This document shows, piece by piece, positions 27,198 to 64,000 of a DNA stretch of 64,000 nucleotides. Numbering within the stretch: position 1 is the stretch's first letter; every line of letters starts with the position of its first letter. The translations under genes and the position numbers were made by a program. This DNA is from Bacteroides uniformis (lineage in GTDB: Bacteria; Bacillota_I; Bacilli_A; RFN20; CAG-826), in assembly GCA_963641445.1 (NCBI GenBank), contig CAVIBR010000002.1, positions 51,656 through 115,655 of the forward strand, in the 5' to 3' direction. The notes under the pieces are model-generated. The model was not told where the DNA came from. It saw only the letters and a program-made list of their open reading frames with translations, and ran no database searches.

Positions 27198-28109
27198 GTG
27201 CAATTAACCATTTATCCTTTAGATTTTGAAGAGTTCCTATATAACTCAAATAGAATCCTATATAACGTCATTAAAGATGCGTACGAGAAGAAGGCGAAAA
27301 TCGATGAATCAATACATGAATTGGCTTTGAGGCAGTTTTACGATTATTTGGTCATTGGCGGTATGCCTGAAGTCGTAAATGAATTTTTAAAAACAAAATC
27401 ATATCAATCAGCAAAAGAAATACTGATTGACCTATATGACAATTACTTAGGGGATATGGAGTTATATCAAGCTAGTCCAGAATCGATTGTTTGTTCTAAG
27501 AAAGTTTTCGAAACAGTTTATTCTCAACTCAACAAGAAGTCTAAAAACTTCAAAACGTCTTTGATTGATAAGAATCTAAAAGGAAGGGATTTGCAAACTC
27601 CTATTGATTGGCTAACGCTTGCTTTTTTGGTAAATAAATCGTCGTTAGTAAAAGAAAAAGTATCCATCCCATTAATCAGCTCAAACGAATCGCTATTTAG
27701 ATTGTATTTGTCTGATATGGGCATGTTCACATATCAAAGCAGCATTAATCCAAAAGTATTTTTATCAAACGAAGGGATAAACACGCTTAGTGGAATATTT
27801 TTTGAGAATTATGTTGCGATAGAGTTAGTAAATTATGGATATGAACTATTCTATTGGAAAGGGAAGGGCGATTCTGAATTCGAATTTGTCATCGAAAGTG
27901 AATCAAGTATCATTCCTATAGATGTTAAGAAATCAAATGGAAAACTGAACTCACTTAAGAAATATACGGAACATAACACATTGAAATACGCAGTTAAAGT
28001 ATCAAAAAACAATTACGGATTTGATGAGGAAAACAAGATTTTGACAATACCATTTTATTTCCTTCCATTTTATTTAAAAGAACTCCGTAAGAAAGAAGAA
28101 ATAGATTGA
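27198..28109 (+). pseudogene. N-terminally truncated DUF4143 AAA-ATPase paralog (the P-loop half is missing). A likely gene remnant.
   Basis: 303 aa starting at a GTG. It aligns to residues from about 125 onward of the 408/409-aa paralogs (…YPLDFEEF… versus …MPLSTKEI…; shared …YLSDMGMFTY… region) and lacks the GxxGxGKST P-loop. 16-bp direct repeats AAAAGGTGCAATTAA at 27159-27173 and 27193-27207 flank the truncation point. Confidence 0.5.
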
Positions 28110-29365: not shown

Positions 29366-30592
29366 ATGAATTACATCAGACGACAATTAGAAAAAACAGT
29401 AGAAAAATTATCAAAGCAATTTCCTGTGATTATGCTTTGTGGGCAAAGGCAAACCGGGAAATCAACAATGTTAAGACATATCGCTGAAAAAGACAGGGTA
29501 TACGTTAGTTTTGATGATAATAAAGCAAGAACATTAGCGAAAAACGACCCTGAGTTGTTTTTTGAAAGATATGGAACAAAACTAATTATTGATGAATTTC
29601 AAAGAGTTCCAGAGATTTTGTTAGAAATCAAAAAAATAGTTGATGAAAAAACATACAATGATGAGGATTCCTCAGGAATGTTTTGGTTATCGGGCTCGCA
29701 AAAATTCGTTATGATGAAAAACATTTCTGAAACATTAGCGGGTAGAGTTGCCATACTAAGCTTAATGCCTTTATCTACAAAGGAAATCAATGGGCAAGAT
29801 GAAGATGTTTTCCACCCATACATCGAAACATTAAAAAAATTAGATCCACAAAAAGTAACGCAAAGCAAGATATTCGAAAGAATATTCCAAGGCGGGCTGC
29901 CAAAGATTATTGCTAATCAAGAATTGGATAGAGATGTTTATTATTCAAGCTATATAAACACTTATATCGAAAGAGATGTATCCGCACTAGAGCAGATTGG
30001 AAAACTTGATGAATTTAGAGATTTCATCACATATATGGCCGCGAATACAGCCCAGGAATTAAAATATGAAACTATATCAAAGGTTGTTGGAGTATCTTCT
30101 CCTACCATAAAAGAATGGGTAAGCATTTTGGAACGTTCCGGAATAATATATATCTTACGTCCTTATAATAATTCAGTAAGCAAAAGATTGGTTAAAACGC
30201 CGAAATGCTATTTCATAGATACAGGATTAGCAGCGTATCTAACTTCTTGGCCAACAGCAAGAACATTAGAGAATGGAGCAGCAGCTGGCGCTTTTTATGA
30301 AACGTATGTGGTATCCGAAATACTAAAAAGCTATTTTAACAACGGAAAAGAGCCAAATATTTATTATTATCGAGACATCGATCAAAAAGAAATCGATTTA
30401 TTGATTGTAGAGGGAGATAAGATCTATCCAATTGAAATAAAAAAGAATAAATTCCCGTCAAACCCGGATAAAAATTTTAAAGCGTTGGAAAAATTCAATC
30501 TTAAAATCATGCCAGGCATAATTCTTTGTATGAGTGATCAATTAATTCCTTATAACAGAGATTGCTGGCTATGCCCTATAAGTTTGATTTGA
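29366..30592 (+). CDS. AAA+ ATPase of the DUF4143 family (paralog 3)
   Basis: 408 aa. P-loop LCGQRQTGKST. Shares …YIERDV…, …KPKLYF(S/I)DTGLAAYL… and …YYYRD…EIDL… blocks with 7516-8745. Confidence 0.7.
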   Translation: MNYIRRQLEKTVEKLSKQFPVIMLCGQRQTGKSTMLRHIAEKDRVYVSFDDNKARTLAKNDPELFFERYGTKLIIDEFQRVPEILLEIKKIVDEKTYNDEDSSGMFWLSGSQKFVMMKNISETLAGRVAILSLMPLSTKEINGQDEDVFHPYIETLKKLDPQKVTQSKIFERIFQGGLPKIIANQELDRDVYYSSYINTYIERDVSALEQIGKLDEFRDFITYMAANTAQELKYETISKVVGVSSPTIKEWVSILERSGIIYILRPYNNSVSKRLVKTPKCYFIDTGLAAYLTSWPTARTLENGAAAGAFYETYVVSEILKSYFNNGKEPNIYYYRDIDQKEIDLLIVEGDKIYPIEIKKNKFPSNPDKNFKALEKFNLKIMPGIILCMSDQLIPYNRDCWLCPISLI

Positions 30593-30674
30593 TCATCCTC
30601 ATATCAAACATCTTTATAGTTCAAAGAAAATTGGTCATTCAAAAGAAGAATCTGAAATGTTTTATTAAACACAT

Positions 30675-30790
30675 TAATCTTTACGAAATTAAAATAATCT
30701 TTCGGATTTTTAATTATTCTCTCGGAAATTGAAATAATCTTTCGGAAAATCGATTATTCTTTCGGAAAATTCCCGAAAGATTATTGGCAA
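30675..30790. repeat. Array of about five 20-bp imperfect direct repeats (consensus AATTATTCTTTCGGAAAAT) ending in one inverted copy. A repeat-rich intergenic region upstream of the zinc-ribbon/SPFH/TIR gene cluster.
   Basis: taatctttacgaaatt / aaataatctttcggatttt / taattattctctcggaaatt / gaaataatctttcggaaaat / cgattattctttcggaaaat / tcccgaaagattattgg (inverted). Contiguous, with no spacers. Confidence 0.6.
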
Positions 30791-31180: not shown

Positions 31181-32821
31181 ATGAGTAAGTTTTACATTAA
31201 ATGTCCTAATTGTGGCAAATTCCATCTAGCATCAACCGGATTATTCGCTAGCAAACATATCGATTGCGATTGCGGTTATTCGATAAGTGTCAAAAACGAC
31301 AGAATGTCTTCCACAACATGCCCTGAATGCGACAACACTGTCGTTTACGATCAAGCAAAGGCGGGCAATGCTGAATGCCCAGTTTGTCATAAGCATTTAG
31401 ACCCATTAAAAGGGAATGGCTTAGTTAGCATTCATTGTCCAACATGCAATATCCAAACTAACGTAGATAAAGCGGCAAAATATTACACTTGCCCAGTTTG
31501 CGATACTACTATTGATGTTCAAAAGCAGATCGTTAAAGAGAATGCAGCAAATAGCAAAAAGATCTCTATTATCAAATACGAAGGCCCTAAAGATGTTATT
31601 TGCTATAAATATCCAGTCGAAGACTTTATTACAGGTTCAGAATTGATTGTTCATGAATCTCAAGTCGCAGTCTTCTTCAAAGATGGTGAAGCGTTAGATA
31701 CTTTCGGACCGGGAAGGCATTTCTTAACGACTGATAGGCTTCCTTTGATTGGAAAGTTCTACAAATTAGATACAAATCAAAACGCTCAGCCTTTCCATTG
31801 TGAAATATATTTCGTAAATATGTCCACCATAATGGGCGTCAAATGGGGCACGCCAAACAAAGTAGGCTTATTTGATCCTCATTCTGGTCTTCATGTCGAT
31901 ATTGGCGCATGCGGAACATTTAACCTAGTCGTCAAAGATGCAAGGAAACTCTTATTCAAGATTGTTGGCACAAGCAATGGCCTTTTTGAAGATGACATCA
32001 TTGGCGAAGATAGATTCTCTGGCATTTTCAAAGACTTGCTTGTTAACAAAGTTAAATCAAATCTTGCAAAAACAATCAGAGAAAGCAACATCAATATCCT
32101 TGAAGTAGACGAACATATCGATGAGATATCCGATGTTTTGAAGAAAGTGGTCAATCCAACACTTGAAGAATACGGGTTATCAATAACTGAATTCTACGTT
32201 GTTAACATTCTTCTTCCTAACGATGATCCAAACTTCAAGAAAATGAAGGAACAATATGCCGAGCAATATTTGAAAGTGAGAAACGAAAACATCCTTAAAG
32301 ATGAAGCGTTAGCAAAGCAGCAAAGAAGAATGGTTGAACTTCAAACTGAACAAAATGAAGAAATAATCAGAGCCCAAGCAAAAGCTCAAGCGTATCGTTT
32401 GCAAGCTCAAGCTGAAGCCGATGAAATGAAAATGAAGGGATACACCTACCAACAAGAAACCCAAAGACAGGTTGCATTAGGTGCAGTAACGAATGCGAGT
32501 GGAGAAGGCGGAGGAGTATCCGGAACTGCTTCAAGTATGATTGATTTGGGAATTGGCCTGGGAATGATGAAGGAGGTTGCAAAAACCGTTGGTGAAACAT
32601 TAAAACCAGGACTAGAAGAAAGTAAAAACGTCATATCAGAAACAATAAGTCCTTCTTCCACTTGGGAATGCCCTGAGTGCCATGCCAAAGGGCTAACTTC
32701 TAAGTTCTGCCCAGAATGTGGAGCAAAGAAGCCAGACGAAGAATGGACTTGTCCTGAATGCCATACCGAACATATCAAAACAAAATTCTGTCCTAATTGC
32801 GGACACAAAAGAGGAGAATAA
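31181..32821 (+). CDS. Multi-zinc-ribbon protein with a central SPFH/Band-7 (Band_7_1, YdjI-like) domain and a coiled-coil region
   Basis: 546 aa. The N-terminal 120 aa carry six CxxC pairs (CPNCG, CDCG, CPECD, CPVCH, CPTCN, CPVCD). Residues about 130-330 (IIKYEGPKDVICYKYPVEDFITGSELIVHESQVAVFFKDGEALDTFGPGRHFLTTD…FHCEIYFVN…GACGTFNLVV…) match the SPFH-like Band_7_1 fold. Then a Q/A/E-rich coiled coil and a Gly-rich linker. The C-terminus has two more zinc ribbons (CPECHAKG…CPECGAK; CPECHTEH…CPNCGHK). Confidence 0.65.
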   Translation: MSKFYIKCPNCGKFHLASTGLFASKHIDCDCGYSISVKNDRMSSTTCPECDNTVVYDQAKAGNAECPVCHKHLDPLKGNGLVSIHCPTCNIQTNVDKAAKYYTCPVCDTTIDVQKQIVKENAANSKKISIIKYEGPKDVICYKYPVEDFITGSELIVHESQVAVFFKDGEALDTFGPGRHFLTTDRLPLIGKFYKLDTNQNAQPFHCEIYFVNMSTIMGVKWGTPNKVGLFDPHSGLHVDIGACGTFNLVVKDARKLLFKIVGTSNGLFEDDIIGEDRFSGIFKDLLVNKVKSNLAKTIRESNINILEVDEHIDEISDVLKKVVNPTLEEYGLSITEFYVVNILLPNDDPNFKKMKEQYAEQYLKVRNENILKDEALAKQQRRMVELQTEQNEEIIRAQAKAQAYRLQAQAEADEMKMKGYTYQQETQRQVALGAVTNASGEGGGVSGTASSMIDLGIGLGMMKEVAKTVGETLKPGLEESKNVISETISPSSTWECPECHAKGLTSKFCPECGAKKPDEEWTCPECHTEHIKTKFCPNCGHKRGE

Positions 32822-32826
32822 AAACC

Positions 32827-33525
32827 ATGGTTAAGAAAGAAACTTATATTTTCGCTGGAATTATTACGGCCTTATCTTTATTGGCGTATTCTCTTCTATT
32901 TTTCCTCATTCCATTTCCAGTAAAGGATTCTAATGGACACATATTGAATTATGTGACAACGCTTGTGCTTGCTATCACCTTTGTCTGTTCTTTCCTTTTT
33001 GGCTTGTGGAAAAGAAAAGATGTCGCAGGACTTGTTTATAGAATTCCATTAATCAAGTTGATAATCGGATTTGTTATTGCCAACGTAATCGTTTCAATCA
33101 TTGAATGTACCATTAACTCCTTCGTGCCAATGCCATTCTATGCGCCAATAATTGTTGGAATCTTTGAACTCATCTTCTTCTTCAGTTTATTTGTGTTAAA
33201 AAGACAAAATATAACTCACATCGAAAATAACGAAGATAAACAAAAAGAAATGACAAGCGTCATTAAAGAATTAAGAACAAGAGCTAACGTTATCTTCAAT
33301 AACTGCAACGATGATGTTTCAAAAGAAAATATGAAGAAAGTTGTAGACGCTCTTCAATATTCTGATCCTGTTTCTTCTAAAGCGACAATTGAAAATGATG
33401 GCAAAATTGCTTCATTGTTAAATCAATTAGAAGAAATGGTTAATGATGGAAAATCCATAACATCCGTTGATGAAATATTAAAAGCAATTAGCAAAAGAAA
33501 CATAACAGCAATCAATAACAAATAA
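32827..33525 (+). CDS. Small membrane protein (4 predicted TM helices plus a C-terminal cytoplasmic helical domain), unknown function. Start revised to the ATG at 32827.
   Basis: The ORF track starts at a TTG (32797) inside the upstream gene. The ATG at 32827 (MVKKETYIF…) is preceded by AGAGGAGAA plus 8 nt and lies 5 nt after the upstream stop. Four hydrophobic segments, then a charged tail …KELRTRANVIFNNCNDDVSKENMKKVVDALQYSD…. Confidence 0.5.
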   Translation: MVKKETYIFAGIITALSLLAYSLLFFLIPFPVKDSNGHILNYVTTLVLAITFVCSFLFGLWKRKDVAGLVYRIPLIKLIIGFVIANVIVSIIECTINSFVPMPFYAPIIVGIFELIFFFSLFVLKRQNITHIENNEDKQKEMTSVIKELRTRANVIFNNCNDDVSKENMKKVVDALQYSDPVSSKATIENDGKIASLLNQLEEMVNDGKSITSVDEILKAISKRNITAINNK

Positions 33526-33540: not shown

Positions 33541-36500
33541 ATGGCTTTATTTAAATGCAAAATGTGTGGGGGAGATCTCGTGGTCAAAGAGGGTGAGAAA
33601 GTAACCAAATGCCCCTATTGTGAGACAGCCCAAACAATCCCTAATCAAAAAGATGAACAAACAGTCAAATTAATTAACCGCGGAAATTTATTACGTAACC
33701 AAGGTGAATTCGATAAAGCGTATGGTATATTTTCCCAACTTCTAAATTCAGAAACCGAAGACGCGGAATTATATTGGAACCTTCTTCTTTGCAAATACGG
33801 CATAACATATGTCGATGATTATGATGGGAAGAAGATTCCAACCATCAATAGAATGTCACGCACCTCAATTCTTGATGATGACGATTATAAGAAAGTACTC
33901 TCTTTAGCAGATGTCGTTGCAAAAGATAATTATGTTGATGAAGCGAACAAAATAGCTAAGATTCAGGAGGGAATTTTGAAAATTGTTAATTCTGAAGAAC
34001 CATACGATGTCTTCATTTCCTACAAAGAAAGTGATGAAACAGGCGATAGAACAAGAGATTCCATTTTAGCGCAGGAAATCTACGATACTTTCACTAAAGA
34101 GGGATATCGTGTTTTTCTTTCCCGCATAACTCTTTCTAACATTATCGGAAAAGAATACGAACCATACATTTATTCTGCATTGTATTCATCAAAAATAATG
34201 TTATTGGTTTGCACGGATGAAAGTTACGTCAATTCCGTTTGGGTCAAAAATGAATGGACCAGATTCTTAGGCATGATGAAAGAGGATAAGAGTAAAACGC
34301 TTATCCCATGTTATAGAGATCTTGATCCATATGATTTGCCTAAGGAAATCAGAAACCTTCAAGGACTTGATATGTCCAAGCTTGGCTTCATCCAAGATTT
34401 AAAAACAGGCGTTTGCAAAATCCTTGGCAAAAAGAAAGCTGAGGCTGTTCCTTCTCCTACTCCAGCAAAAACGGAAAACAAGAACGAATCTCTAGATTTA
34501 GTCACCAAAATGATCAAAAGAGGATTCAGCTTCCTTGAACAAGAAAAGGGTGAACAAGCCAAAAAGATGTTTGAAGAGTCTTTGCTATATGAAGAAAGAA
34601 CCTACGCTTATTTAGGGTTACTTTGTCTTAAATACAATTGTTCAACAGTTGAAGAATTATATGCGCTTGATGATAAAAACATTGCAAACCAACCTCTTTT
34701 CAAAAAAGCTTTAAGCGTTGCTAACGAACAAGAACGAGAAACGTTAAATAACATCGTTAAAAGCATTACGGACAAAACATATAAGAAGGATCTAGCTAAA
34801 TACAATGCCGCTTTGAAATTGAAAAACGATGGCAATTATCATGACGCAATTCAAGCGTTTAATGCAATTCTAGATTTTTCCGATTCAAAGAATCAAATCA
34901 AAGAATGTGAAAATTTAATTCTAGAAGGTAAAAAAGCAATCCTTTACGAAAGACTATGCAAACAATATCAAGATAAATATTTCAAAGGCGTTTTAGAAAC
35001 GTTCCAAGAATTATATAAATTAGATAAAGATTATAAAGATTCTCGTAAATTGCAAGATGAATCCATTATCGCTTTATGCAACAATTTATTAAAAAGGAAC
35101 GATTATGTTAAAGTTCGAAAACTACTTAATGAAAATAGGTGTTTTTCCAAGGAATACATTGATGAAACATATAAAAAATGTGATCAGATTGAAAGAGAAA
35201 CTGAAAGCAAACAAGCAGAACATAAAAGAAGGCAAAACATTTATCAAGAATGTGATGTAATCAAAGAAAATGAAACGCTTTCTGACCTAGAAGCAAAATT
35301 GAACAAACTTCTTACGTGCAAGGGCGATGATTGCTATCCAGAATATACAGAGCAAAAGCTCAAAACAGCCATTAGGAAGAAAAAAGCAAAAAAAGGAATA
35401 TTCATAACTATCACCACAATGATTGTTTTAGCCGTTGGCGGAGGGATTCTCGCTAATGTAATCGTTAGCAAGATCAATGACAAAAAAGAGGCGGAGAGAT
35501 TATCTTCAATCGAAGAAAGACAATCTCAAGAACTATCTTCATTAAAGAAAAAATACGCCGCACCTATATTCAATTTCGAAGAAAAAACGATGACGTATGG
35601 CGTTTATCCACAAACTGTCGTTGATGATGAATCACTCATTGGCAAATTAAACGATTTAACAGGAGATTCTCAACATGAAAATGAATTTTATTATTACAAC
35701 GAAGAATATTATTATCCGGTAAAAGCAAATCCGAATAAGAGTAACTACGTTTTTAGCAATGGATCAAATATCATTAGTTCCACAAAATATTGGTTCAAAG
35801 TAGAGCCAATAAAATGGAAGATGATAAATGCTAGCGAAGACAGCATCACTTTAACAAGTACGGCATTGGTAACTAGACAGGCTTTTGCTGCCTCAACATA
35901 TGCCAATTCAGATGCAAGGAAATGGATTAATGGAGGATTTTATAACAAAGCTTTTTGTTTAGATGATTCCTTAATTCTTACTAGTGAGGTTGATAATAGT
36001 CATTCGATGCAAGATACATGTGGTAGCAAATATTACGAAGACAATACAAACGATAAGTTATATCTTTTAAGTTACCAAGATATTTATCAAAGAAAATACG
36101 AACTATCAACCGATACGACTGATCCTTATAACACCGGTTGCAAAATAACGGATTACATTAGAGCGTGTGGCGCATATTGCGACCTAAAAACTGGCTATGA
36201 ATATAATGGTGATTATTGGACGCGTTCCCTTTGCTCATCATCGGGCAATCCATCATGCGTAAATTCAAATGACACAATTAATCATAGCGTAGGTAATCGA
36301 AACTATAATGCATGCCTTAGACCATGCATGAAAATATCACACAAATGGACAGATGAAGAAAAAGCGTTAGCAAATAAGAACAATAATCAATTATCAGAGG
36401 GAAAGGCCGAGATTAAAGAAAAATATGGCAAACCTGTCGTAGATTTAGCTAATAACACGGTGAAATATGGCATATATCCACAAACTCTTGTTTCCGATGA

Positions 36501-37158
36501 AGCGTTAACAACTAAGTTAGATTCATCCTCTATTTACGATAGCGCTAACGGATGGTCTTACTATAACGGCGAATATTATAAGAAGTTTAAAGCTAACCCA
36601 TATGATAGTTCTTATACATACGATAACGATGAAACAATCGTAAGCGGAACATATTATTGGTTTAAATGTGAGCAAGTCGAATGGAAGATAATGAAAACGG
36701 GCGATGATGGCACATATCAACTAATAACTTCAAAACTGATAGATTGCAGATACTATTCATCAACACCAATGGATGATAGTTTTGCCAATTCATCAATAAG
36801 GACATGGCTTAACGGAACTTTTTATAATCAGATTTTTCTTGATCAGTCATATGTTCAAGAAACAAGCGATGAAAATAAATTTTATTTTTTAAGTGAGGAC
36901 GAATTATGCAGCTCAGATTATGGTTTTTCCTCCGATAATGCTTCGCGCTATTGCAAGACAACAGACTACGCTAGAGCGAATTATGCTTGTATTTATACTG
37001 ATGATGAAACTAAATATAACGGAATGTATTGGACTAGGACATATTATAAAGGTGGAGGCGGAGTTTTTTATGTCATCAAAAACGGATTTAACGATAGAGA
37101 CTCTGAATCAAGCATTATTTGCATTCGTCCATGCGTGAATATCAAAATCTCCGAATAA
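33541..37158 (+). CDS. Single-pass membrane TIR-domain protein: N-terminal zinc ribbon, TPR-like repeats, TIR domain, TPR-like region, one TM helix, then two extracellular DUF1566/Fib_succ_major-like lectin-type modules
   Basis: 1205 aa. Zinc ribbon CKMCGG…CPYCET. TIR: …PYDVFISYKESDETGDRTRDSILAQEIYDTFTKEGYRVFLSRITLSNIIGKEYEPYIYSALYSSKIMLLVCTDESYVNSVWVKNEWTRFLGM (DVFISY start, alphaC-like SxWxxNEW with Glu). TM at about aa 620, GIFITITTMIVLAVGGGILANVIV, preceded by KKKAKKG (N-in). The C-terminal 560 aa contain two repeated modules, each ending Y/MYWTRS/T…C(L/I)RPC(M/V)(K/N)I. RBS CAGGAG. Confidence 0.7.
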   Translation: MALFKCKMCGGDLVVKEGEKVTKCPYCETAQTIPNQKDEQTVKLINRGNLLRNQGEFDKAYGIFSQLLNSETEDAELYWNLLLCKYGITYVDDYDGKKIPTINRMSRTSILDDDDYKKVLSLADVVAKDNYVDEANKIAKIQEGILKIVNSEEPYDVFISYKESDETGDRTRDSILAQEIYDTFTKEGYRVFLSRITLSNIIGKEYEPYIYSALYSSKIMLLVCTDESYVNSVWVKNEWTRFLGMMKEDKSKTLIPCYRDLDPYDLPKEIRNLQGLDMSKLGFIQDLKTGVCKILGKKKAEAVPSPTPAKTENKNESLDLVTKMIKRGFSFLEQEKGEQAKKMFEESLLYEERTYAYLGLLCLKYNCSTVEELYALDDKNIANQPLFKKALSVANEQERETLNNIVKSITDKTYKKDLAKYNAALKLKNDGNYHDAIQAFNAILDFSDSKNQIKECENLILEGKKAILYERLCKQYQDKYFKGVLETFQELYKLDKDYKDSRKLQDESIIALCNNLLKRNDYVKVRKLLNENRCFSKEYIDETYKKCDQIERETESKQAEHKRRQNIYQECDVIKENETLSDLEAKLNKLLTCKGDDCYPEYTEQKLKTAIRKKKAKKGIFITITTMIVLAVGGGILANVIVSKINDKKEAERLSSIEERQSQELSSLKKKYAAPIFNFEEKTMTYGVYPQTVVDDESLIGKLNDLTGDSQHENEFYYYNEEYYYPVKANPNKSNYVFSNGSNIISSTKYWFKVEPIKWKMINASEDSITLTSTALVTRQAFAASTYANSDARKWINGGFYNKAFCLDDSLILTSEVDNSHSMQDTCGSKYYEDNTNDKLYLLSYQDIYQRKYELSTDTTDPYNTGCKITDYIRACGAYCDLKTGYEYNGDYWTRSLCSSSGNPSCVNSNDTINHSVGNRNYNACLRPCMKISHKWTDEEKALANKNNNQLSEGKAEIKEKYGKPVVDLANNTVKYGIYPQTLVSDEALTTKLDSSSIYDSANGWSYYNGEYYKKFKANPYDSSYTYDNDETIVSGTYYWFKCEQVEWKIMKTGDDGTYQLITSKLIDCRYYSSTPMDDSFANSSIRTWLNGTFYNQIFLDQSYVQETSDENKFYFLSEDELCSSDYGFSSDNASRYCKTTDYARANYACIYTDDETKYNGMYWTRTYYKGGGGVFYVIKNGFNDRDSESSIICIRPCVNIKISE

Positions 37159-37221: not shown

Positions 37222-38883
37222 TTAACTTTGTTTTTCACATTTAATAGAAACTTTGTTTTTATAGAAACTAACACCAAACAAAAGGGTATTCTTAATACCT
37301 AGATTTTTTAATTCTTGATCGTATCCTTGCGTTTTTATTTGTTTTATAGCATTCTCTGTTGAATTTTCTAATCTCGATTCAATTGTTCTAGTTTTTAAAG
37401 ATTTAACTTCAACCACAAATCCTAAATCTTTGTTATCTTTTGGTATGACTACTATATCCGCTCTGCCACTACCAGCATTGAATTCGTTTTTGATGTATGC
37501 GTCATCGAATATTACGGCTAAAGTCGTAGATAACAATATTTGGTAGTTTTTCTCTAAATTCATCTCATATGATGAGAAAGTAGACAAGAGATATTTTTCC
37601 ATTAAGTCCTTAAGATTAGAAGAATCTCCATCTTGGAAGGCCTTCTTCAATTTATAGACTAGAGGAATTTGATCACTCCTAAGATATCTGGAACGGATTT
37701 CTCTTCTGAACACTGCTTTGATTTCTTTGTTAGGTATAACAAGGCTGTAAAATTCTTCGTAGTTATCCGAGATTGATAAGTAACCACTAGCTAAAAGATA
37801 AGAACATACCGAAATAAACGAATCGTCTAAATCCTTATAGGAAAGAGCTATATCTATCTCGGTATTAATCTTCTTATCAGATAATAAAGGCAATAAGGAA
37901 TTTAAACGTTCTAAGCTAAGTATCTTTCCTAAAGTTTTGCTTTCGCCAGTATTGTTCCAATACATTCCATCTTCTCCCCCGTTTTGAATAAAGCTCAAAA
38001 CAGATAATGGATTGAATATTTTAGAATTTCCAAACTTATATCCTCCATACCAGGAGCAGACATCATCATATCTCTCAGAATAGTCATAATATTCAAGCAT
38101 ATCTTTGACTTCATTTTCGGTGAAGCCAAATCCTTCATCCATATTCTTAGAAAGAATTGAGTTGGTAACTAAATTATTAACCCCGGAGAATAATGATTCT
38201 TTTGCGATTTGCAGTATTCCAGTTATCACGGCTAAACGAAGAGATTGATTGGTCTTTAAGCTTTCACCGAAATATTGTTTGAAGAACATGATCGTTTCAT
38301 CATAGAAACCATAATCAAAAGAATAATGAACAGGAGAATCATATTCATCAATTAAGATGATGACCTTTTTATTAGTCGTTTTATATAGCATCTCAGACAA
38401 TCTTAGCAAGGAACTAGAAAGATCGTTTATCGTAGAATCCTTAGCGACAATTGATTGAAAATATTCTTTTTCTTCAGAATTTAATGTCGATGAAGAAAGA
38501 ATATAGGCATGGCGTTGATACTCTTTGCTCATACATTCTTTCATTTTTTCAATCAATGTTTCAAAATCCATTCCTATTACATTTTTTAAATTGATATGTA
38601 TAAGCGGGTATTTTTGGAATTCATTTTCAATAACTTCTTTGTTATTCCATATTTTTTTACCTTTGAAATATTGACTTTTATCGGTTTCGTCTTTTTCAAA
38701 AAACTCTTGAAGCATTGATAACATCAAAGTTTTGCCAAATCTTCTAGGACGAGTAAAAAGTAAGCATGTTCCAGTAGGAAATTTTGAAATAGTCTCAATA
38801 ATGTTTGTTTTGTCTACGTAATAACATTCATTCGATACTGTCTCGAAGAATTCAATTCCTAATGGTACAGGTTTCTTTTCCAT
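37222..38883 (-). CDS. AAA-ATPase_like N-terminal domain plus C-terminal PD-(D/E)XK nuclease-like domain protein (DUF1703-type predicted AAA-ATPase)
   Basis: 553 aa. Hallmark N-terminal region …ECYYVDKTNIIETISKF…LFTRPRRFGKTLMLSMLQEFF… and Walker-B-like ILIDEYDSPV. C-terminal …NAGSGRADIVVIPKDNKDLGFVVEVKSLK… matches the PD-(D/E)XK (D…EVK) core of DUF1703. RBS CAGGAG. Convergent with the TIR gene. Confidence 0.65.
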   Translation of the reverse strand: MEKKPVPLGIEFFETVSNECYYVDKTNIIETISKFPTGTCLLFTRPRRFGKTLMLSMLQEFFEKDETDKSQYFKGKKIWNNKEVIENEFQKYPLIHINLKNVIGMDFETLIEKMKECMSKEYQRHAYILSSSTLNSEEKEYFQSIVAKDSTINDLSSSLLRLSEMLYKTTNKKVIILIDEYDSPVHYSFDYGFYDETIMFFKQYFGESLKTNQSLRLAVITGILQIAKESLFSGVNNLVTNSILSKNMDEGFGFTENEVKDMLEYYDYSERYDDVCSWYGGYKFGNSKIFNPLSVLSFIQNGGEDGMYWNNTGESKTLGKILSLERLNSLLPLLSDKKINTEIDIALSYKDLDDSFISVCSYLLASGYLSISDNYEEFYSLVIPNKEIKAVFRREIRSRYLRSDQIPLVYKLKKAFQDGDSSNLKDLMEKYLLSTFSSYEMNLEKNYQILLSTTLAVIFDDAYIKNEFNAGSGRADIVVIPKDNKDLGFVVEVKSLKTRTIESRLENSTENAIKQIKTQGYDQELKNLGIKNTLLFGVSFYKNKVSIKCEKQS

Positions 38884-41149: not shown

Positions 41150-43216
41150 TTAGTTTAAGGCGATAGAAGAAATAACCATCAATCCAGCAAATACGTATCC
41201 CATTGCAAAGAACACGCCATATAAAATCAAGGTGAAATAATCTAAAGGCTTATTCCTGCTTCCGAAATGTGGGTGATAGAAAAGTAGCATTGGAGCTAGA
41301 TAGATAATTTCCCAATATCCTCCTAATCCCCTATTTCCTTTTGTTGAATGGGCGAGCAAATATTCCGTTAAGGAAAGAACGCAGATAATCACGCAGATAA
41401 GAATATTCTTCATAAAATAGAATTTATTGCCGTTAAAGAAACGTCCTGCAACTTCAGGTCCATATCTGAATTTAAAGAAGAGTCTAAGGAAATAAAGACC
41501 GATCAAGTAAGAGCAGCATAATAAGGAGAATTGAGGTCTTTCGGAATTGAAGAAATAAACCTGCCATGTATTAAAGTTTAGGCCCCATTTCTTGTAGTTT
41601 TGGAAAATAACGGTTGAAATGATAATCCATGCTAAAGGAAGAATGGCTAAGCACCTAAAACCTATTGTTTTCTTCTTTGAATCCATCCAGCCTGGAGAAT
41701 AGAAAAGGAAGACCATGATGCCAAAATAACAAGCGATCGTAGAAAAGTTATTCGGAATGACATAGAAAAGATCGACTATCTTAGCAACTCCTCTTGTCAT
41801 GCTGAAATATTGAACCAATGTTGCTTCAAGAATATATAATCCAAAGAAAACAATGAAATAAAGGAAGAAATTTCTAAGACTTCTTCTATCATTAAGGAAA
41901 ATATCGAAATCAATGAAATATAGTAAGAACATTCCAACCGTGAAATACATGAACAAGCTTAAGGAAGTAGATTCGAAATCGGATTGATCGATTCCTGTGA
42001 AGGTGAAAAGATTTATCGTATAAAGAATGATTCTTATCGAGCCGAAAAAGACAAGACCTATTCCAATTAATTCATATATCGTTTCAGGAACAAATGGATA
42101 GAAACGTATGTCTTTCTTCGGTGTCACGCATGATCTAGATATTGGAGCGTCGTTTGCTAATTTAAGTTCACGTGCTGCATCCTTTGCTAATCTCTTTTTG
42201 CTCTTTCCACCAAAGAAGATGGCAAAGAGAATGAAGAAAAGGAATCCACCAGTTAGAATAACTCCGCCTAAACCAAAGCCAAGAGAAGAAATCTCCGCAT
42301 AAAGATTCTCCGTCGCGCTTTCTGCATGATCGACAAGCAATTCGTTATAGAAATTGTAATCTAAGTCTAATTTCTCTTTGATTAAAGATGTGAAGGCGTC
42401 GTTAAGCTCATTAACATGTTCTAAGGCCTTATCTTTTAATTTTAGATACACCTCACTAGAAGATTCATAATGGTTATATGCCCCATCATAGAGATCATCG
42501 GTGAATTTAAACTCACTTTTATCATCGTCTCTTTGTAGGTTGTTCGTGTATTTTACGAGGGTTTCGCGGTCGATATATTGAAATTTGATTGTTGTTAATG
42601 CTTTTTTTGCATCATTAGGAATGATGTAATAAATATTCTCTTCCTCGCTTGAATAACAAACATATGCGTTAAGACTTCTAATAGCGTAGTCTTCCGTTGA
42701 AGTACTAATAGAGGTAAATCTCCCATTAGAAGATGAATGAATCTCAGGTCTAGTCATCTCGTGGAGGAGGGAAACTGTTGTTCCGCCTTTTTCTCTCATT
42801 GTATAAGCGAATGTTAGATATCTTTCGTTATAGAAATCAGTCGCATGATCCATGACATAGCCATAACGGCAAAAGCCGAATATCGTTAAGCCAATTGATG
42901 CAAGAAGGAAAACCAATATTCCTATTTTGACATATACCTTTGATAATAATTTCTGATAGAACTTAACAAACCAACCGACCTTTTCAGGCAATTCAGCAGG
43001 ATAAGAGGAGACTCCTTCAAGATATTGAGAATAATCAACGCCTAATGCTTTAGAAATTCTTTCAACGTATTTTTTGCCTGGTTTGACATATCCATTTTCG
43101 TAATAAGAATAAAAAAGAGGGGGTACGTTAAGCAGTTTTGCAAACTTTCGCTTAGTTAATCCCATCTCCATTCTTCTCTTGTAGAGATATTCGTTATAGG
43201 CGATGCTTACTTCCAT
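41150..43216 (-). CDS. Membrane protein with an N-terminal cytoplasmic XRE-type HTH domain fused to a large polytopic membrane domain (membrane-anchored one-component regulator candidate)
   Basis: 688 aa. N-terminal …YLYKRRMEMGLTKRKFAKLLNVPPLFYSYYENGYVKPGKKYVERISKALGVDYSQYLEG is HTH_XRE. Then 1 TM, an extracytoplasmic domain of about 230 aa, a second TM and a basic loop (GKSKKRLAKDAAREL), then about 8 further TM helices. TGT-TATACT (extended -10) lies 7 nt upstream of the ATG: leaderless candidate. Confidence 0.6.
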   Translation of the reverse strand: MEVSIAYNEYLYKRRMEMGLTKRKFAKLLNVPPLFYSYYENGYVKPGKKYVERISKALGVDYSQYLEGVSSYPAELPEKVGWFVKFYQKLLSKVYVKIGILVFLLASIGLTIFGFCRYGYVMDHATDFYNERYLTFAYTMREKGGTTVSLLHEMTRPEIHSSSNGRFTSISTSTEDYAIRSLNAYVCYSSEEENIYYIIPNDAKKALTTIKFQYIDRETLVKYTNNLQRDDDKSEFKFTDDLYDGAYNHYESSSEVYLKLKDKALEHVNELNDAFTSLIKEKLDLDYNFYNELLVDHAESATENLYAEISSLGFGLGGVILTGGFLFFILFAIFFGGKSKKRLAKDAARELKLANDAPISRSCVTPKKDIRFYPFVPETIYELIGIGLVFFGSIRIILYTINLFTFTGIDQSDFESTSLSLFMYFTVGMFLLYFIDFDIFLNDRRSLRNFFLYFIVFFGLYILEATLVQYFSMTRGVAKIVDLFYVIPNNFSTIACYFGIMVFLFYSPGWMDSKKKTIGFRCLAILPLAWIIISTVIFQNYKKWGLNFNTWQVYFFNSERPQFSLLCCSYLIGLYFLRLFFKFRYGPEVAGRFFNGNKFYFMKNILICVIICVLSLTEYLLAHSTKGNRGLGGYWEIIYLAPMLLFYHPHFGSRNKPLDYFTLILYGVFFAMGYVFAGLMVISSIALN

Positions 43217-43284
43217 ACGTATGAGTATAACATTTTAAAGTTTCTTTCTATTATCTTTTTCTTTTGATTGCTACAATATATCAG

Positions 43285-45147
43285 ATGAAATTTAAGAAGA
43301 TTTTAGTATATTCAACGCTTACCATCTTCCTTTGTTCCTGTGACCAAAAAAAGCCGGGGAATTTCTCATTTCGTTATTCTCAAGCAGTAAGCAATGATTA
43401 TACTGGTCAAGCTTATTATACAGATGAATATTTCAAAAAGGATTCGATTGAATATAATCAATCGCTATCCACTTCATCTCTTTGCTTTGCTATGTCTGCT
43501 TTTGCCAGCAATTCAACTCAATCCTACAGTAATAAATATATAAACGTTCAAAGCTTCCTTGAAAGAAATGGATTTAGCAAGATTGATGTGAATCAATATT
43601 TCAAAGTTAAACCTACAGCAGATTCTCTAGGCGTTTGTTTTGGAATGAAACAAATTGATGGAGTTACTTTGGTTGCAGCCGGAATTCGTGGCGCAGGATA
43701 CGAAATGGAATGGGCGAGCAACCTTACCATCGGCGATGGAGAGAAAATCAAACAGCACCAAGGCTTTTATGAAGCATCATCAATTTATCTTGAATCTTTA
43801 CATGATTATTTAAAAAACAATGCAATAACCGGCTCGATTAAGCTTTGGAGCGTTGGTTATTCACGTGCAGCCGCGACAAATAATCTTGCATGTGGAAGAA
43901 TTGATCAAAGAATAGATGAGAATAAAACTATCTTTGATGATTTGGATGTTACAATCAAAAAAGAGGACCTTTTCGCATATTGTTTTGAATGCCCTCAAGG
44001 AGCGTCATGGAACGAGACAATCTCTCCAAGAGATAAAATATATTCAAACATTCACAACATCATAAATTCCAACGATCCTGTTCCAATGGTCGCGATGTCT
44101 GCCTTCCATTTCACACGTTATGGGATTGATTATTATCTTCCTGATTCGATTAGAAATTCTAACTACTCATCTTTTGAACCAAGAATGCTTGAGTTATATA
44201 ACAAACTAGATAATCGTTCTGCTTTAGGGGATTACGTTATTGATGATTTCAATATGCGTGGAAGCAAGGAAGAAAATCTAGATGCGTCAAAATCAACAAA
44301 TGCTAGAAAGAATTGGACATCAGGCTTGTTCTTAAATGAATTATTAAACAATCTTTCTACGTACGGCATTGGTTCAGTTGCCAATTACTTCACCAACATC
44401 CAAGCTGGTCTTAGAACAGTTTGTGAGATTCTTTTCAATAATAGCCAAGCTAAATTCTCTTTAATGAATCTAGGCGTATCCTTAGCAAGAATATTCGTTA
44501 ATGACTCAAACGTTGATATTGTCGTCAATAACCTTTTCCATGATTTAAGTGCGTTTAAAAATGATTTGTTATATGCGTTAAAAATCGCCTTTGATTCGAT
44601 GGGGATAACAACGAATCCTAACGATATAATCGATGCCTTAGAATCTTTAGTTAGTGCATTAGTAAAAACTTTATCAATGCATTTTGAATATTTCTTTGTT
44701 TTCCTTTCTACATCGAATATCAAAGCACTTGCCCAGGCGCACTTCCCTGAATTGTGTTTTTCTCATATGATGGCATTAGACACCAATTATAACGATACGG
44801 TTAAAGAATATAACAATGACGGAAGCTATTATTATTTGCAAATACCTGATTTAAATGACAAAACAAAGATCACAATAACAAACAAAGAAGGCAAGCAAGT
44901 CGCGGGATTAGATGCCTATCAGTTATATGCGAATGGAACTCTTTCTTATGCGGTTATGGAAAATACGTTTGTTGCATATATTCCAGTTGATGAAGAATAT
45001 ACGATAAATATTGAAAATGGAACTGGCTACGACCTTTCTTATTTCGACCAAAGATATGAAGATATGATTTCATATAAGTTAGGCGAAATAAAAGATGAAA
45101 CATTTTCCTTAAGCACAGAAACATATCCGGAAAAGAAAGTGCAATAA
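43285..45147 (+). CDS. Secreted/lipoprotein alpha/beta-hydrolase (lipase-like, GYSRA nucleophile-elbow) protein. Start revised to the ATG at 43285.
   Basis: The ORF track starts at a TTG (43264). The ATG at 43285 gives MKFKKILVYSTLTIFLCSCDQKK (signal plus Cys). GxSxG-like motif …IKLWSVGYSRAAATNNLAC… Lipase_3-like context (…GVTLVAAGIRGAGYEMEWASN…). TACAAT lies 7 nt upstream of the ATG (leaderless candidate). Confidence 0.5.
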   Translation: MKFKKILVYSTLTIFLCSCDQKKPGNFSFRYSQAVSNDYTGQAYYTDEYFKKDSIEYNQSLSTSSLCFAMSAFASNSTQSYSNKYINVQSFLERNGFSKIDVNQYFKVKPTADSLGVCFGMKQIDGVTLVAAGIRGAGYEMEWASNLTIGDGEKIKQHQGFYEASSIYLESLHDYLKNNAITGSIKLWSVGYSRAAATNNLACGRIDQRIDENKTIFDDLDVTIKKEDLFAYCFECPQGASWNETISPRDKIYSNIHNIINSNDPVPMVAMSAFHFTRYGIDYYLPDSIRNSNYSSFEPRMLELYNKLDNRSALGDYVIDDFNMRGSKEENLDASKSTNARKNWTSGLFLNELLNNLSTYGIGSVANYFTNIQAGLRTVCEILFNNSQAKFSLMNLGVSLARIFVNDSNVDIVVNNLFHDLSAFKNDLLYALKIAFDSMGITTNPNDIIDALESLVSALVKTLSMHFEYFFVFLSTSNIKALAQAHFPELCFSHMMALDTNYNDTVKEYNNDGSYYYLQIPDLNDKTKITITNKEGKQVAGLDAYQLYANGTLSYAVMENTFVAYIPVDEEYTINIENGTGYDLSYFDQRYEDMISYKLGEIKDETFSLSTETYPEKKVQ

Positions 45148-54071: not shown

Positions 54072-54091
54072 ACAGTTACAATTATAAAAAG

Positions 54092-54178
54092 AAAACCACC
54101 GCACAGGAATCTCCACTTATGGCTGCTACCTTCCGATCCTGACCAGGTTCATGGAGGCTTCCTCACGATGGCATGGAT
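54092..54178 (-). ncRNA. ffs: Small (4.5S-type) signal recognition particle RNA
   Basis: The minus-strand RNA contains AACCUGGUCAGGAUCGGAAGGUAGCAGCC, which is near-identical to the universally conserved SRP domain-IV motif ACCAGGUCAGGUCCGGAAGGAAGCAGCC. The termini (CGUGAGGAAGCCUCCAUG / GUGGAGAUUCCUGUGCGG) pair into a long helix. A UUUUC tail follows. The ends are approximate. Confidence 0.75.
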
Positions 54179-62973: not shown

Positions 62974-64000
62974 TCATTTCCTCCTTGTGGCATTATTCTT
63001 AGAGACGTCTATTATGGCATCCCCCTCTATTGAACACTCAGCCGAAGTAATGAACACCTGGCCAAGTTTGTTTAATAAGCAATTTAATTTTTCCGACCTT
63101 TTCTCATCTAGTTCGCTATAAACGTCATCGAGAATTGTGATCGGTTTCTTGTTCGTATCCTCGATTAAGAAGAACGGCGCTATTTTTAAGGCAATAGCAA
63201 CAAGCCTGTTTTCTCCTTGTGACCCATATAACGAGATATCTTTCCTGTCTAGGAATAAGGAGAAATCTTCGCGATGAGCTCCTTTGGAAGTAGTTTTCCG
63301 AAAAAGATCGTTCGAATAATTGTTCTCGTATAGTTTTTTTGCGTTTGTTTGGAAATTCTCTAATTCGAGAAATTGATGATAGTCGATATGCAACTCTCTT
63401 TGACTGTCATACAGAGCGTTTGCTACCTCGGTAAGGATTCCATTCAATTCAGCCACATATTTCTTTCTATAGCGAATTATTGGCTCGGAAACGGCTATCA
63501 ATTGATTGGTTATCACTTCAAGATAGGTGGAGTCGACGTTTTCTTTCTTAAGAATCGCATTCCTTTCTTGAAGAATTTTCGAATATTCACCCACGAGAGA
63601 TAAATATTCTGGATACTTCTTAGAAATCGCGATATCTAAGAAACGGCGTCTTGCGGATGGGGGGCTCTTGAAGATATTTACATCTTCAGGAGCGAAGACG
63701 ATGACGTTAACTAGCTTCGACAATTCACTAAGACGTCTAGCCGGTTTGCCATCAATCGTTATCTTCTTTTCTTTCTGAGAGATAAATATTTCGATCGTCT
63801 TCCTTATCGCGCCTTCGCAAACGTATGCGCGTATAAAAGCAGAATCTTCTCCAGAGCGAATTAACGTCCTGATGTCATTATTTCTCCAACTTTTGCATAA
63901 AGATAAGAGATAAATAGCTTCGACGATATTCGTTTTCCCGCTGCCATTAAGGCCTAAAATAACGTTGTTCTTAGGCGAAAAATCAAGTGTCAGAGAAGAA
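62974..64000 (-). CDS. recF: DNA replication and repair protein RecF (5' end beyond window)
   Basis: The reading frame is open to the window edge. It contains the Walker A …LGLNGSGKTNIVEAIYLL… near 63950 and the RecF signature/Walker B region (…LVLLDDVYSELD…-like ITILDDVYSELDEKR). The stop lies 1 nt from the gyrB start. Confidence 0.9.
   Translation of the reverse strand, partial: SSLTLDFSPKNNVILGLNGSGKTNIVEAIYLLSLCKSWRNNDIRTLIRSGEDSAFIRAYVCEGAIRKTIEIFISQKEKKITIDGKPARRLSELSKLVNVIVFAPEDVNIFKSPPSARRRFLDIAISKKYPEYLSLVGEYSKILQERNAILKKENVDSTYLEVITNQLIAVSEPIIRYRKKYVAELNGILTEVANALYDSQRELHIDYHQFLELENFQTNAKKLYENNYSNDLFRKTTSKGAHREDFSLFLDRKDISLYGSQGENRLVAIALKIAPFFLIEDTNKKPITILDDVYSELDEKRSEKLNCLLNKLGQVFITSAECSIEGDAIIDVSKNNATRRK

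Follow-up and report, generated by a model that had tools for sequence, protein, structure and literature searches.

What could a TIR domain do at the inner end of a bacterial membrane protein whose other end is predicted to face the outside of the cell? The question is raised by the gene at 33541-37158 (+) of the window, a term used here for the whole 64,000-nucleotide stretch of contig CAVIBR010000002.1 (assembly GCA_963641445.1) that was analysed. The gene encodes a 1205-residue single-pass TIR receptor-like protein, hereafter the TIR receptor, and stands last in an operon with genes for a flotillin-like SPFH protein and for a protein with four transmembrane (TM) helices. Together the SPFH protein, the four-TM protein and the TIR receptor are a dedicated three-component system, and the operon is found again in hundreds of Clostridia and Bacilli from gut and rumen. 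At E238 the TIR domain has a Glu that, by alignment, is predicted to be of the catalytic type, in register with that of TIR domains that cleave NAD+ (NADases). The reading favoured here, with a probability of roughly 45%, is that of an outside-sensing receptor in which the TIR would cleave NAD+ upon clustering and an SPFH scaffold would gate it. The gene is laid out as follows.

33541-37158 (+), whole gene: 1205-residue single-pass TIR receptor-like protein, from the open reading frame (ORF) list, with TIR_2, two DUF6273 stretches and one hydrophobic helix
33541-33636 (+), N-terminal zinc ribbon C6-x2-C9 ... C24-x2-C27 (residues 6-27), recognised by its CxxC pairs
33655-33993 (+), family-specific helix and beta-hairpin module containing YWNLLLCKYGITYVDD (model: helix 39-85, strands 88-102, helix 114-151)
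34000-34428 (+), TIR domain, residues 154-296 (Pfam TIR_2 match to residues 157-280, nucleotides 34009-34380)
34240-34257 (+), alphaC motif W234-V-K-N-E238-W239, read from the translation; codon of E238, the putative catalytic Glu, at 34252-34254
34486-35340 (+), predicted cytoplasmic TPR-like helical solenoid, residues 316-600, all-helical in the model with a predicted local distance difference test score (pLDDT) >90
35395-35466 (+), TM helix GIFITITTMIVLAVGGGILANVIV, residues 619-642, the sole helix in the protein by hydropathy scan
35554-36360 (+), ectodomain repeat 1, DUF6273, C-type-lectin-like, residues ~672-940
36403-37155 (+), ectodomain repeat 2, DUF6273, residues ~955-1205, the second Pfam stretch

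A TIR domain embedded in a membrane protein of 1205 residues had been proposed in the first-pass annotation, whose interpretation of this stretch is supported. The Pfam TIR_2 model matches residues 157-280 with 53.9 bits against a cut-off of 28 (E = 3.2e-14), and the ORF contains the single membrane helix listed above. The residues quoted for the domain are present, with 34000-34428 translating to PYDVFISYKESD...GYRVFL...LYSSKIMLLVCTDESYVNSVWVKNEWTRF and including the alphaC residues SVWVKNEWTRF; the range first given for it, 33999-34420, is out of frame because 33999 lies one base before the P154 codon. Superposition on solved TIR domains, which had been suggested with ThsB and AbTir as partners, revealed a flavodoxin-like alpha/beta fold, with comparison figures of 15.8 for TIRAP, 15.7 for MyD88, 15.4 for TIR-SAVED, 14.9 for RPP1, 11.3 for ThsB and 9.8 for AbTIR. 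A Foldseek probability of 1.0 was obtained against the TIR domains of SPARTA, L7 and TIR-STING, and Cat1 also appears among the structural matches of the protein, together with TIR-SAVED, SPARTA and ThsB. Matches in the PDB to WRAP-T designed repeats were set aside as sums of weak matches between repeats and a low-complexity stretch, with no homology.

A Glu at the alphaC position used by NADase TIRs had likewise been claimed, and the alignments bear this out. The catalytic residue of alphaC is E642 in SARM1, E208 in AbTir and E100 in RUN1. When the family TIR profile was compared with RUN1, L6 and L7 using HMMER, W234 was aligned with their Trp, and E238 with the Glu of WCLDEL or WCLMEL. Alignment by MAFFT L-INS-i with seven NADase-active bacterial TIRs, whose sequences and assay results were taken from Table S2 of a published screen (Weagley et al., 2022; PMC9092222), placed E238 on their Glu and WVKNE on, among others, WTNYE of AbTir and WTQYE of TcpC. 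TcpF, whose sequence in the same table is unrelated, was ruled out as a member of the TIR receptor family. Absence of the Glu from an alignment had been named as the finding that would count against the claim; E238 is kept in 258 of 259 relatives, as is W234, and N237 and W239 are kept in all 259. About 20 more positions are near-invariant in these relatives, including D156, F158, K162, E163, R170, T171, D173 and S174, and the near-invariant set also takes in Y206, E207, P208, N237, W239 and R241, which suggests constraint beyond the maintenance of the fold. A family-specific insertion of 7-8 residues after betaA, E-x-G-x-R-T-x-D-S, is near-invariant as well.

The orientation of the protein in the membrane decides which side the TIR domain faces. 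The stretch RKKKAKK on the N side of the TM helix carries a net positive charge, and the N-terminus is therefore assigned to the cytoplasm; this implies a predicted N-in, C-out topology with the TIR inside and the ectodomain outside. No signal peptide was detected at the N-terminus. All four Cys of the zinc ribbon are invariant or near-invariant among relatives, and the ribbon is formed by two beta-hairpins in the predicted model, with a weak match to an NCBIfam rubredoxin-like domain. TPR-like repeats had been proposed on both flanks of the TIR domain, from YWNLLLCKYG (residues 78-87) and LGLLCLKYNCSTVEELYAL (residues 358-376). This held on the C-terminal side, where residues 316-600 form the solenoid, and failed on the N-terminal side, where there is no TPR array but about one TPR-like helix pair (Pfam TPR_2, 18.7 bits, sub-threshold) followed by a beta-hairpin and helices; apart from this sub-threshold TPR match, no Pfam model covers the module at 33655-33993. 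The solenoid is matched by Foldseek to Tom71, P58IPK and OGT-TPR, its own Pfam TPR matches also being sub-threshold, and is joined to the TIR domain by a linker (residues 299-317) that is disordered in the model (pLDDT <50).

On the other side of the membrane helix, the two DUF6273 stretches constitute an internal repeat that is detectable in both protein and DNA. Both have a C-type-lectin-like fold, with lower model confidence for repeat 2 because few aligned rows cover it. DUF6273 has been described as a C-type-lectin-like ligand-binding scaffold which is diversified by diversity-generating retroelements (DGRs) in gut-phage receptor-binding proteins (PMC10743442; PMC11792537). Such diversification was rejected for the present ectodomain, as no template/variable repeat pair was found; neither of the DGR hallmarks, adenine-specific template/variable repeats and a reverse transcriptase, occurs in the window or in 88 related loci.

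The ectodomain varies between relatives. The first ~300 residues of these are 45-74% identical and the C-terminus is wholly different, consisting of DUF6273, Flg_new, LRR_5, RCC1 propellers, DUF1566 or regions that cannot be recognised. Even among orthologues, the cytoplasmic unit has 74-80% identity versus 44-62% for the ectodomain. Members of at least 450 residues mostly have one TM helix, around residue 580. Two to five tandem paralogues are present in 26 of 80 genome loci, and within one operon these share a TIR at residue 158 and differ in their ectodomains. The receptor reading is supported by this variation, seen both between relatives and between the tandem paralogues of a single operon. 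Arrays of four or five paralogues were observed in loci L014 (762-11653), L012 (4028-17275), L042 (3872-17364) and L024 (455-14925). In the first three, which were scanned, the array surrounds one SPFH/four-TM pair and the ectodomain differs from paralogue to paralogue (DUF6273, RCC1 propeller or unrecognised).

The N-terminal part of the protein has the opposite character. A profile of residues 1-152, searched against 1.84 billion representatives, recovered 2,895 clusters (50% identity) at E<=1e-30, with the match starting at residue 1 in all of them. A TIR was present in 141 of 143 new top matches, the other two being 216-222 residues long and too short to hold one; the zinc-ribbon module is therefore obligately linked to the TIR. 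Exchange of the effector behind this module was considered and rejected, since a TIR is present in nearly all of the 150 best representatives, out of roughly 8,700 matches. By word-indexed search, more than 6,600 relatives of the TIR receptor were retrieved, and at least 582 species-level genomes encode one, mostly gut or rumen Clostridia (Oscillospiraceae, Lachnospiraceae, Ruminococcus) and Bacilli (Erysipelotrichaceae, Acholeplasmataceae). Cultured carriers are Eubacterium eligens ATCC 27750, Pseudoflavonifractor capillosus An827 (locus L021) and Blautia sp. HCP3S3_H10_2 (locus L064). With at least 2,900 clusters at 50% identity the family is very large, and it has also been found in human infant gut metagenomes (supplement to Weagley et al., 2022; PMC9092222).

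Two observations concern close relatives of the gene. The closest genome records, L009 (CAVJFO010000023.1) and L010 (CAVIJE010000007.1), are labelled Hallerella sp. (Fibrobacterota) and Sodaliphilus sp. (Bacteroidota). These labels are distrusted because of AGGAG-type ribosome-binding sites, one of which precedes the TIR gene at 33541-37158, and because relatives come mostly from Clostridia and Bacilli; the contigs, from metagenome-assembled genomes, are likely mis-binned or mislabelled. In a closely related strain, the gene is split by a deletion of 1 nucleotide, ATCAAAGAAAATG to ATCAAAAAAATG, corresponding to window position ~35265 (residue ~575). The split allele was seen at L090 7710-7749 and L091 4595-4634, from GCA_963653265.1 contig CAVJWE010000002.1 and an independent Logan assembly of SRR13434624, and gives a soluble zinc-ribbon/TIR/TPR protein of 582 residues and a TM-plus-DUF6273 protein of 635 residues.

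The company kept by the gene provides a second line of evidence, and its two operon partners are the following.

31181-32821 (+), operon partner 1: soluble SPFH protein (Pfam Band_7_1, 136 bits, and DZR)
32827-33525 (+), operon partner 2: 232-residue protein with four TM helices and a cytoplasmic tail of ~100 residues

The SPFH protein has five N-terminal and four C-terminal CxxC zinc-ribbon motifs and no hydrophobic helix that could span the membrane. The ORF of the four-TM protein opens at TTG 32797; the ATG at 32827 has a GGAG site and yields 232 residues, as in relatives, and the protein has no match in Pfam, PADLOC or NCBIfam. The three genes abut or overlap in the order SPFH, four-TM, TIR receptor, with no terminator between them. 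The same trio accompanies relatives that are 98%, 62%, 46% and 53% identical, and also a 782-residue relative with another ectodomain. An SPFH homologue was detected in 44 of 80 TIR-seeded loci (20 of 28 among those with enough flank), and in all 44 it shares a strand with the nearest TIR gene, at a distance of 0.6-3.6 kb and in either order. Clustering of ORFs revealed the SPFH protein (43 loci) and the four-TM protein (36 of 80 loci) as the only other conserved partners. In the reciprocal test, for which 80 metagenomic loci were seeded with the SPFH protein, a TIR-family gene was present in all 33 loci that had 4 kb or more of flank on each side, and in the SPFH-seeded loci with a TIR match it lay on the same strand in 59 of 59.

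About 400 bp upstream of the SPFH gene, an intergenic repeat array occupies 30673-30790. It consists of about five direct copies of a ~16-nucleotide motif (AATAATCTTTCGGAAA / ATTATTCTYTCGGAAA) with a period of 20 bp and ends in one inverted copy, TTCCCGAAAGATTATT. The array looks like a multi-site operator or an iteron; elsewhere in the window, its motif has only one match, with 2 mismatches, at 63476-63491.

How might the three proteins work together? A possible precedent is known from B. subtilis, where YdjI (SamI), a soluble band-7 protein with a zinc finger, is brought to the membrane by the zinc-ribbon protein YdjG and a second membrane protein, YdjH, and restrains the signalling of these two partners. 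By analogy with SamI, the SPFH protein may serve as a scaffold or brake, and the TIR receptor may be the zinc-ribbon membrane component corresponding to YdjG, with a TIR, a solenoid and a sensor ectodomain added to it. The ectodomain would bind a ligand outside the cell, for instance a glycan, part of the envelope or a phage structure, or would report a perturbation of the envelope. This would cluster the receptors within an SPFH-organised membrane assembly anchored by the four-TM protein, or free them from it, upon which the TIR domains could self-associate and complete their active sites, with E238 catalysing the cleavage of NAD+. The clustering itself might be brought about by the TPR solenoid or by the SPFH protein. 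The output may be NAD+ depletion leading to growth arrest, or a signal derived from ADP-ribose, and the biological role may be phage defence or envelope-stress signalling. A broader proposal, that these proteins make up a large family of outside-sensing immune or stress receptors of Toll-like logic in gut and rumen Firmicutes, with NADase TIRs and arrays gated by the SPFH and four-TM proteins, is possible but can be offered only tentatively.

Several observations weigh against an outside-sensing NADase receptor. In an hhalign comparison with AbTir (65% probability), the alphaC helix is shifted by five residues, which puts a Leu at the catalytic position and leaves the Glu unaligned. The TIR of EUBELI_RS07950 from E. 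eligens, the sole assayed relative found, yielded no product of NADase activity when assayed in E. coli lysates (Weagley et al., 2022, Table S2; PMC9092222). No recognisable sensor of a TIR product (SLOG, Macro, STING or SAVED) is encoded in the operon. The TIR, SPFH and four-TM proteins have zero matches in PADLOC, and among 132 random flanking ORFs about 6%, scattered, match PADLOC models, a count that has no baseline. The shifted register of the hhalign comparison was rejected, since E238 is favoured by the HMMER and MAFFT alignments, by motif spacing and by family conservation. The Y-x-x-S-x-W-x-x-x-E spacing equals that of the plant motif, and W234 and E238 are kept, while position 243 is always Leu, Ile or Val, bar one Tyr, across the 259 members.

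One alternative, plausible but considered less likely than the favoured reading, is a more specific one, namely an abortive-infection system against phage in which the variable ectodomains would detect phage or the envelope damage caused by adsorption, and the TIR would deplete NAD+ and kill the infected cell. TIR NADases are recurrent effectors of defence, and TIR-SAVED, SPARTA, ThsB and Cat1 are all among the structural matches given above. Diversified recognition is suggested by the arrays of paralogues that differ in their ectodomains; PDC-S01 ATPases, SLFN/AlbA_2, a PD-(D/E)XK ATPase, a large helicase and RelB are encoded near the window gene and its relatives, and the frameshifted allele of the close strain would fit a costly accessory gene. 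However, neither the TIR receptor nor its two partners match any PADLOC model, and the low share of flanking ORFs with defence matches amounts to no consistent defence island. The family is also absent from the phage and plasmid collections searched, a tblastn search with the N-terminal 300 residues having given zero matches in 50,697 phage and 72,556 plasmid records.

A serious rival, though a less likely one, is that the TIR serves assembly and has no enzymatic role, as in Toll-like receptors, MyD88 and TIRAP, and oligomerises the receptor or recruits the SPFH and four-TM proteins, the output being a membrane or stress response. The near-complete retention among relatives of W234 and of E238, which aligns with the catalytic Glu of active TIRs, argues otherwise. 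In addition, the assayed relative is atypical, as it deviates at 7 of 24 near-invariant family positions; it was tested as an isolated TIR domain, and the authors of the screen stated that false negatives were not excludable (Weagley et al., 2022; PMC9092222).

Lastly, although bacterial TIR proteins were first described as mimics of host immunity and DUF6273 also occurs on a cell-wall-anchored IgA protease of a gut bacterium, a host-directed mimic of the TcpB/TcpC type or a surface adhesin with an incidental TIR is highly improbable here, because a TIR on the inner side of the protein's sole TM helix, behind a zinc ribbon and with no signal peptide, has no route to host cells, conservation within the protein is highest in the cytoplasmic unit, and a secreted Tcp-type virulence factor is excluded by the topology, with the TIR N-terminal to the helix and a positive inner flank.

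The TIR call itself is routine Pfam annotation, and one relative was already part of a published screen (Weagley et al., 2022). In the searchable literature on TIR with SPFH, on SPFH with anti-phage defence and on this architecture, no description was found of the family, of its N-terminal module or of the SPFH/four-TM operon. The bacterial TIR systems compared here (Thoeris, SPARTA, TIR-SAVED, TIR-STING and AbTir) sense intracellular events; in the present family a TIR predicted to be catalytically equipped is combined with a membrane helix and with an ectodomain that varies between lectin-like, RCC1 and LRR types, and its gene is coupled almost without exception to a SamI-like SPFH gene. If the reading is right, a bacterial TIR system would be triggered externally, for example by phage adsorption or envelope damage and not by cytoplasmic cues, and SPFH proteins would acquire a new job. 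An active TIR could add substantially to NAD+ turnover and to metabolites of the cyclic ADP-ribose type in the gut, and would provide a testable model for the control of TIR activation by a membrane scaffold. An inactive one would be a bacterial scaffolding TIR that retains the catalytic-type Glu of NADase TIRs. The family should be of interest to specialists in bacterial immunity and in SPFH proteins.

The wider neighbourhood of the operon contains genes of the AAA_14/DUF4143 and AAA-ATPase_like/PDDEXK_9 types. One of the latter, at 37222-38883 (-), lies directly downstream of the TIR gene, as it does in L090 and L091, and is missing from the same spot in the 98%-identical locus L001 and in L002 and L004; its variable presence therefore represents an insertion/deletion polymorphism. 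Upstream, two AAA_14/DUF4143 ATPase genes at 27198-28109 (+) and 29366-30592 (+) match the PADLOC candidate PDC-S01. The first of these (303 residues) looks 5'-truncated because its match is restricted to profile positions ~142-432. A divergent pair further downstream, encoding a 688-residue HTH_3 protein at 41150-43216 (-) and a 627-residue protein with no Pfam family at 43264-45147 (+), is kept beside the TIR operon in L001, L002 and L004. A small (4.5S-type) bacterial signal recognition particle RNA is located at 54090-54174 (-), with 58 bits against a gathering score of 40, and no tRNA genes were found in the whole 64 kb.

Taken together, the TIR receptor resembles several known systems in part. 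With the NAD+-cleaving TIRs of SARM1, AbTir, TcpC, RUN1, L6 and RPP1 it shares the position of the alphaC Glu, but identity is just 13-23%, the betaA insertion is specific to the family, and the domain, whose activity is putative, sits in a membrane-anchored protein, flanked by a zinc-ribbon module and a TPR solenoid. EUBELI_RS07950 of Eubacterium eligens is a true family member, with the zinc-ribbon N-terminus, the YWGLVLCKYGIEY module, a TIR at 157-291 and WVKNEW, although its TIR region is only 42% identical to that of the window. Thoeris (ThsB with ThsA) also has a bacterial TIR with a catalytic-type Glu, and a weak match to the NCBIfam model ThcB4 extends over the TIR, but it scores 28.7 bits where the cut-off is 220; the genes accompanying the TIR gene here encode SPFH and four-TM proteins, and no ThsA-type effector (SIR2, Macro or SLOG gene) was found among the neighbours. 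Thoeris or another catalogued defence system was accordingly rejected, given a ThcB4 score so far under its cut-off and the lack of any PADLOC match. Phage receptor-binding proteins and the IgA protease of Thomasclavelia ramosa have in common with the TIR receptor the Pfam DUF6273 domain and its C-type-lectin-like fold, which in the TIR receptor is joined to a cytoplasmic TIR.

Two further parallels concern the arrangement of the parts. In YdjG-YdjH-YdjI (SamGHI), as in the present operon, a soluble Band_7_1 SPFH protein with zinc fingers is encoded together with two membrane proteins, one with a zinc ribbon and the other multi-pass. This likeness is one of architecture, and the present operon differs in that no pspA-family gene is adjacent or among the scanned neighbours and in that its zinc-ribbon membrane protein is extended by a TIR, by the TPR solenoid and by the large ectodomain. 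Toll-like and IL-1 receptors likewise combine a variable ectodomain, one membrane helix and a cytoplasmic TIR, in many paralogues. Nothing indicates common descent with that architecture: the Toll-like receptor is a type I protein with an N-terminal LRR region and a C-terminal TIR, whereas the bacterial protein has a DUF6273 ectodomain and is inverted, with its TIR N-terminal and predicted to be inside and its ectodomain C-terminal. Relatives have lectin-like or RCC1 ectodomains in place of the LRR or Ig domains of the animal receptors, and, in contrast to the animal TIR, which acts as an assembly scaffold, the TIR of the window retains the Glu of the NADase type.

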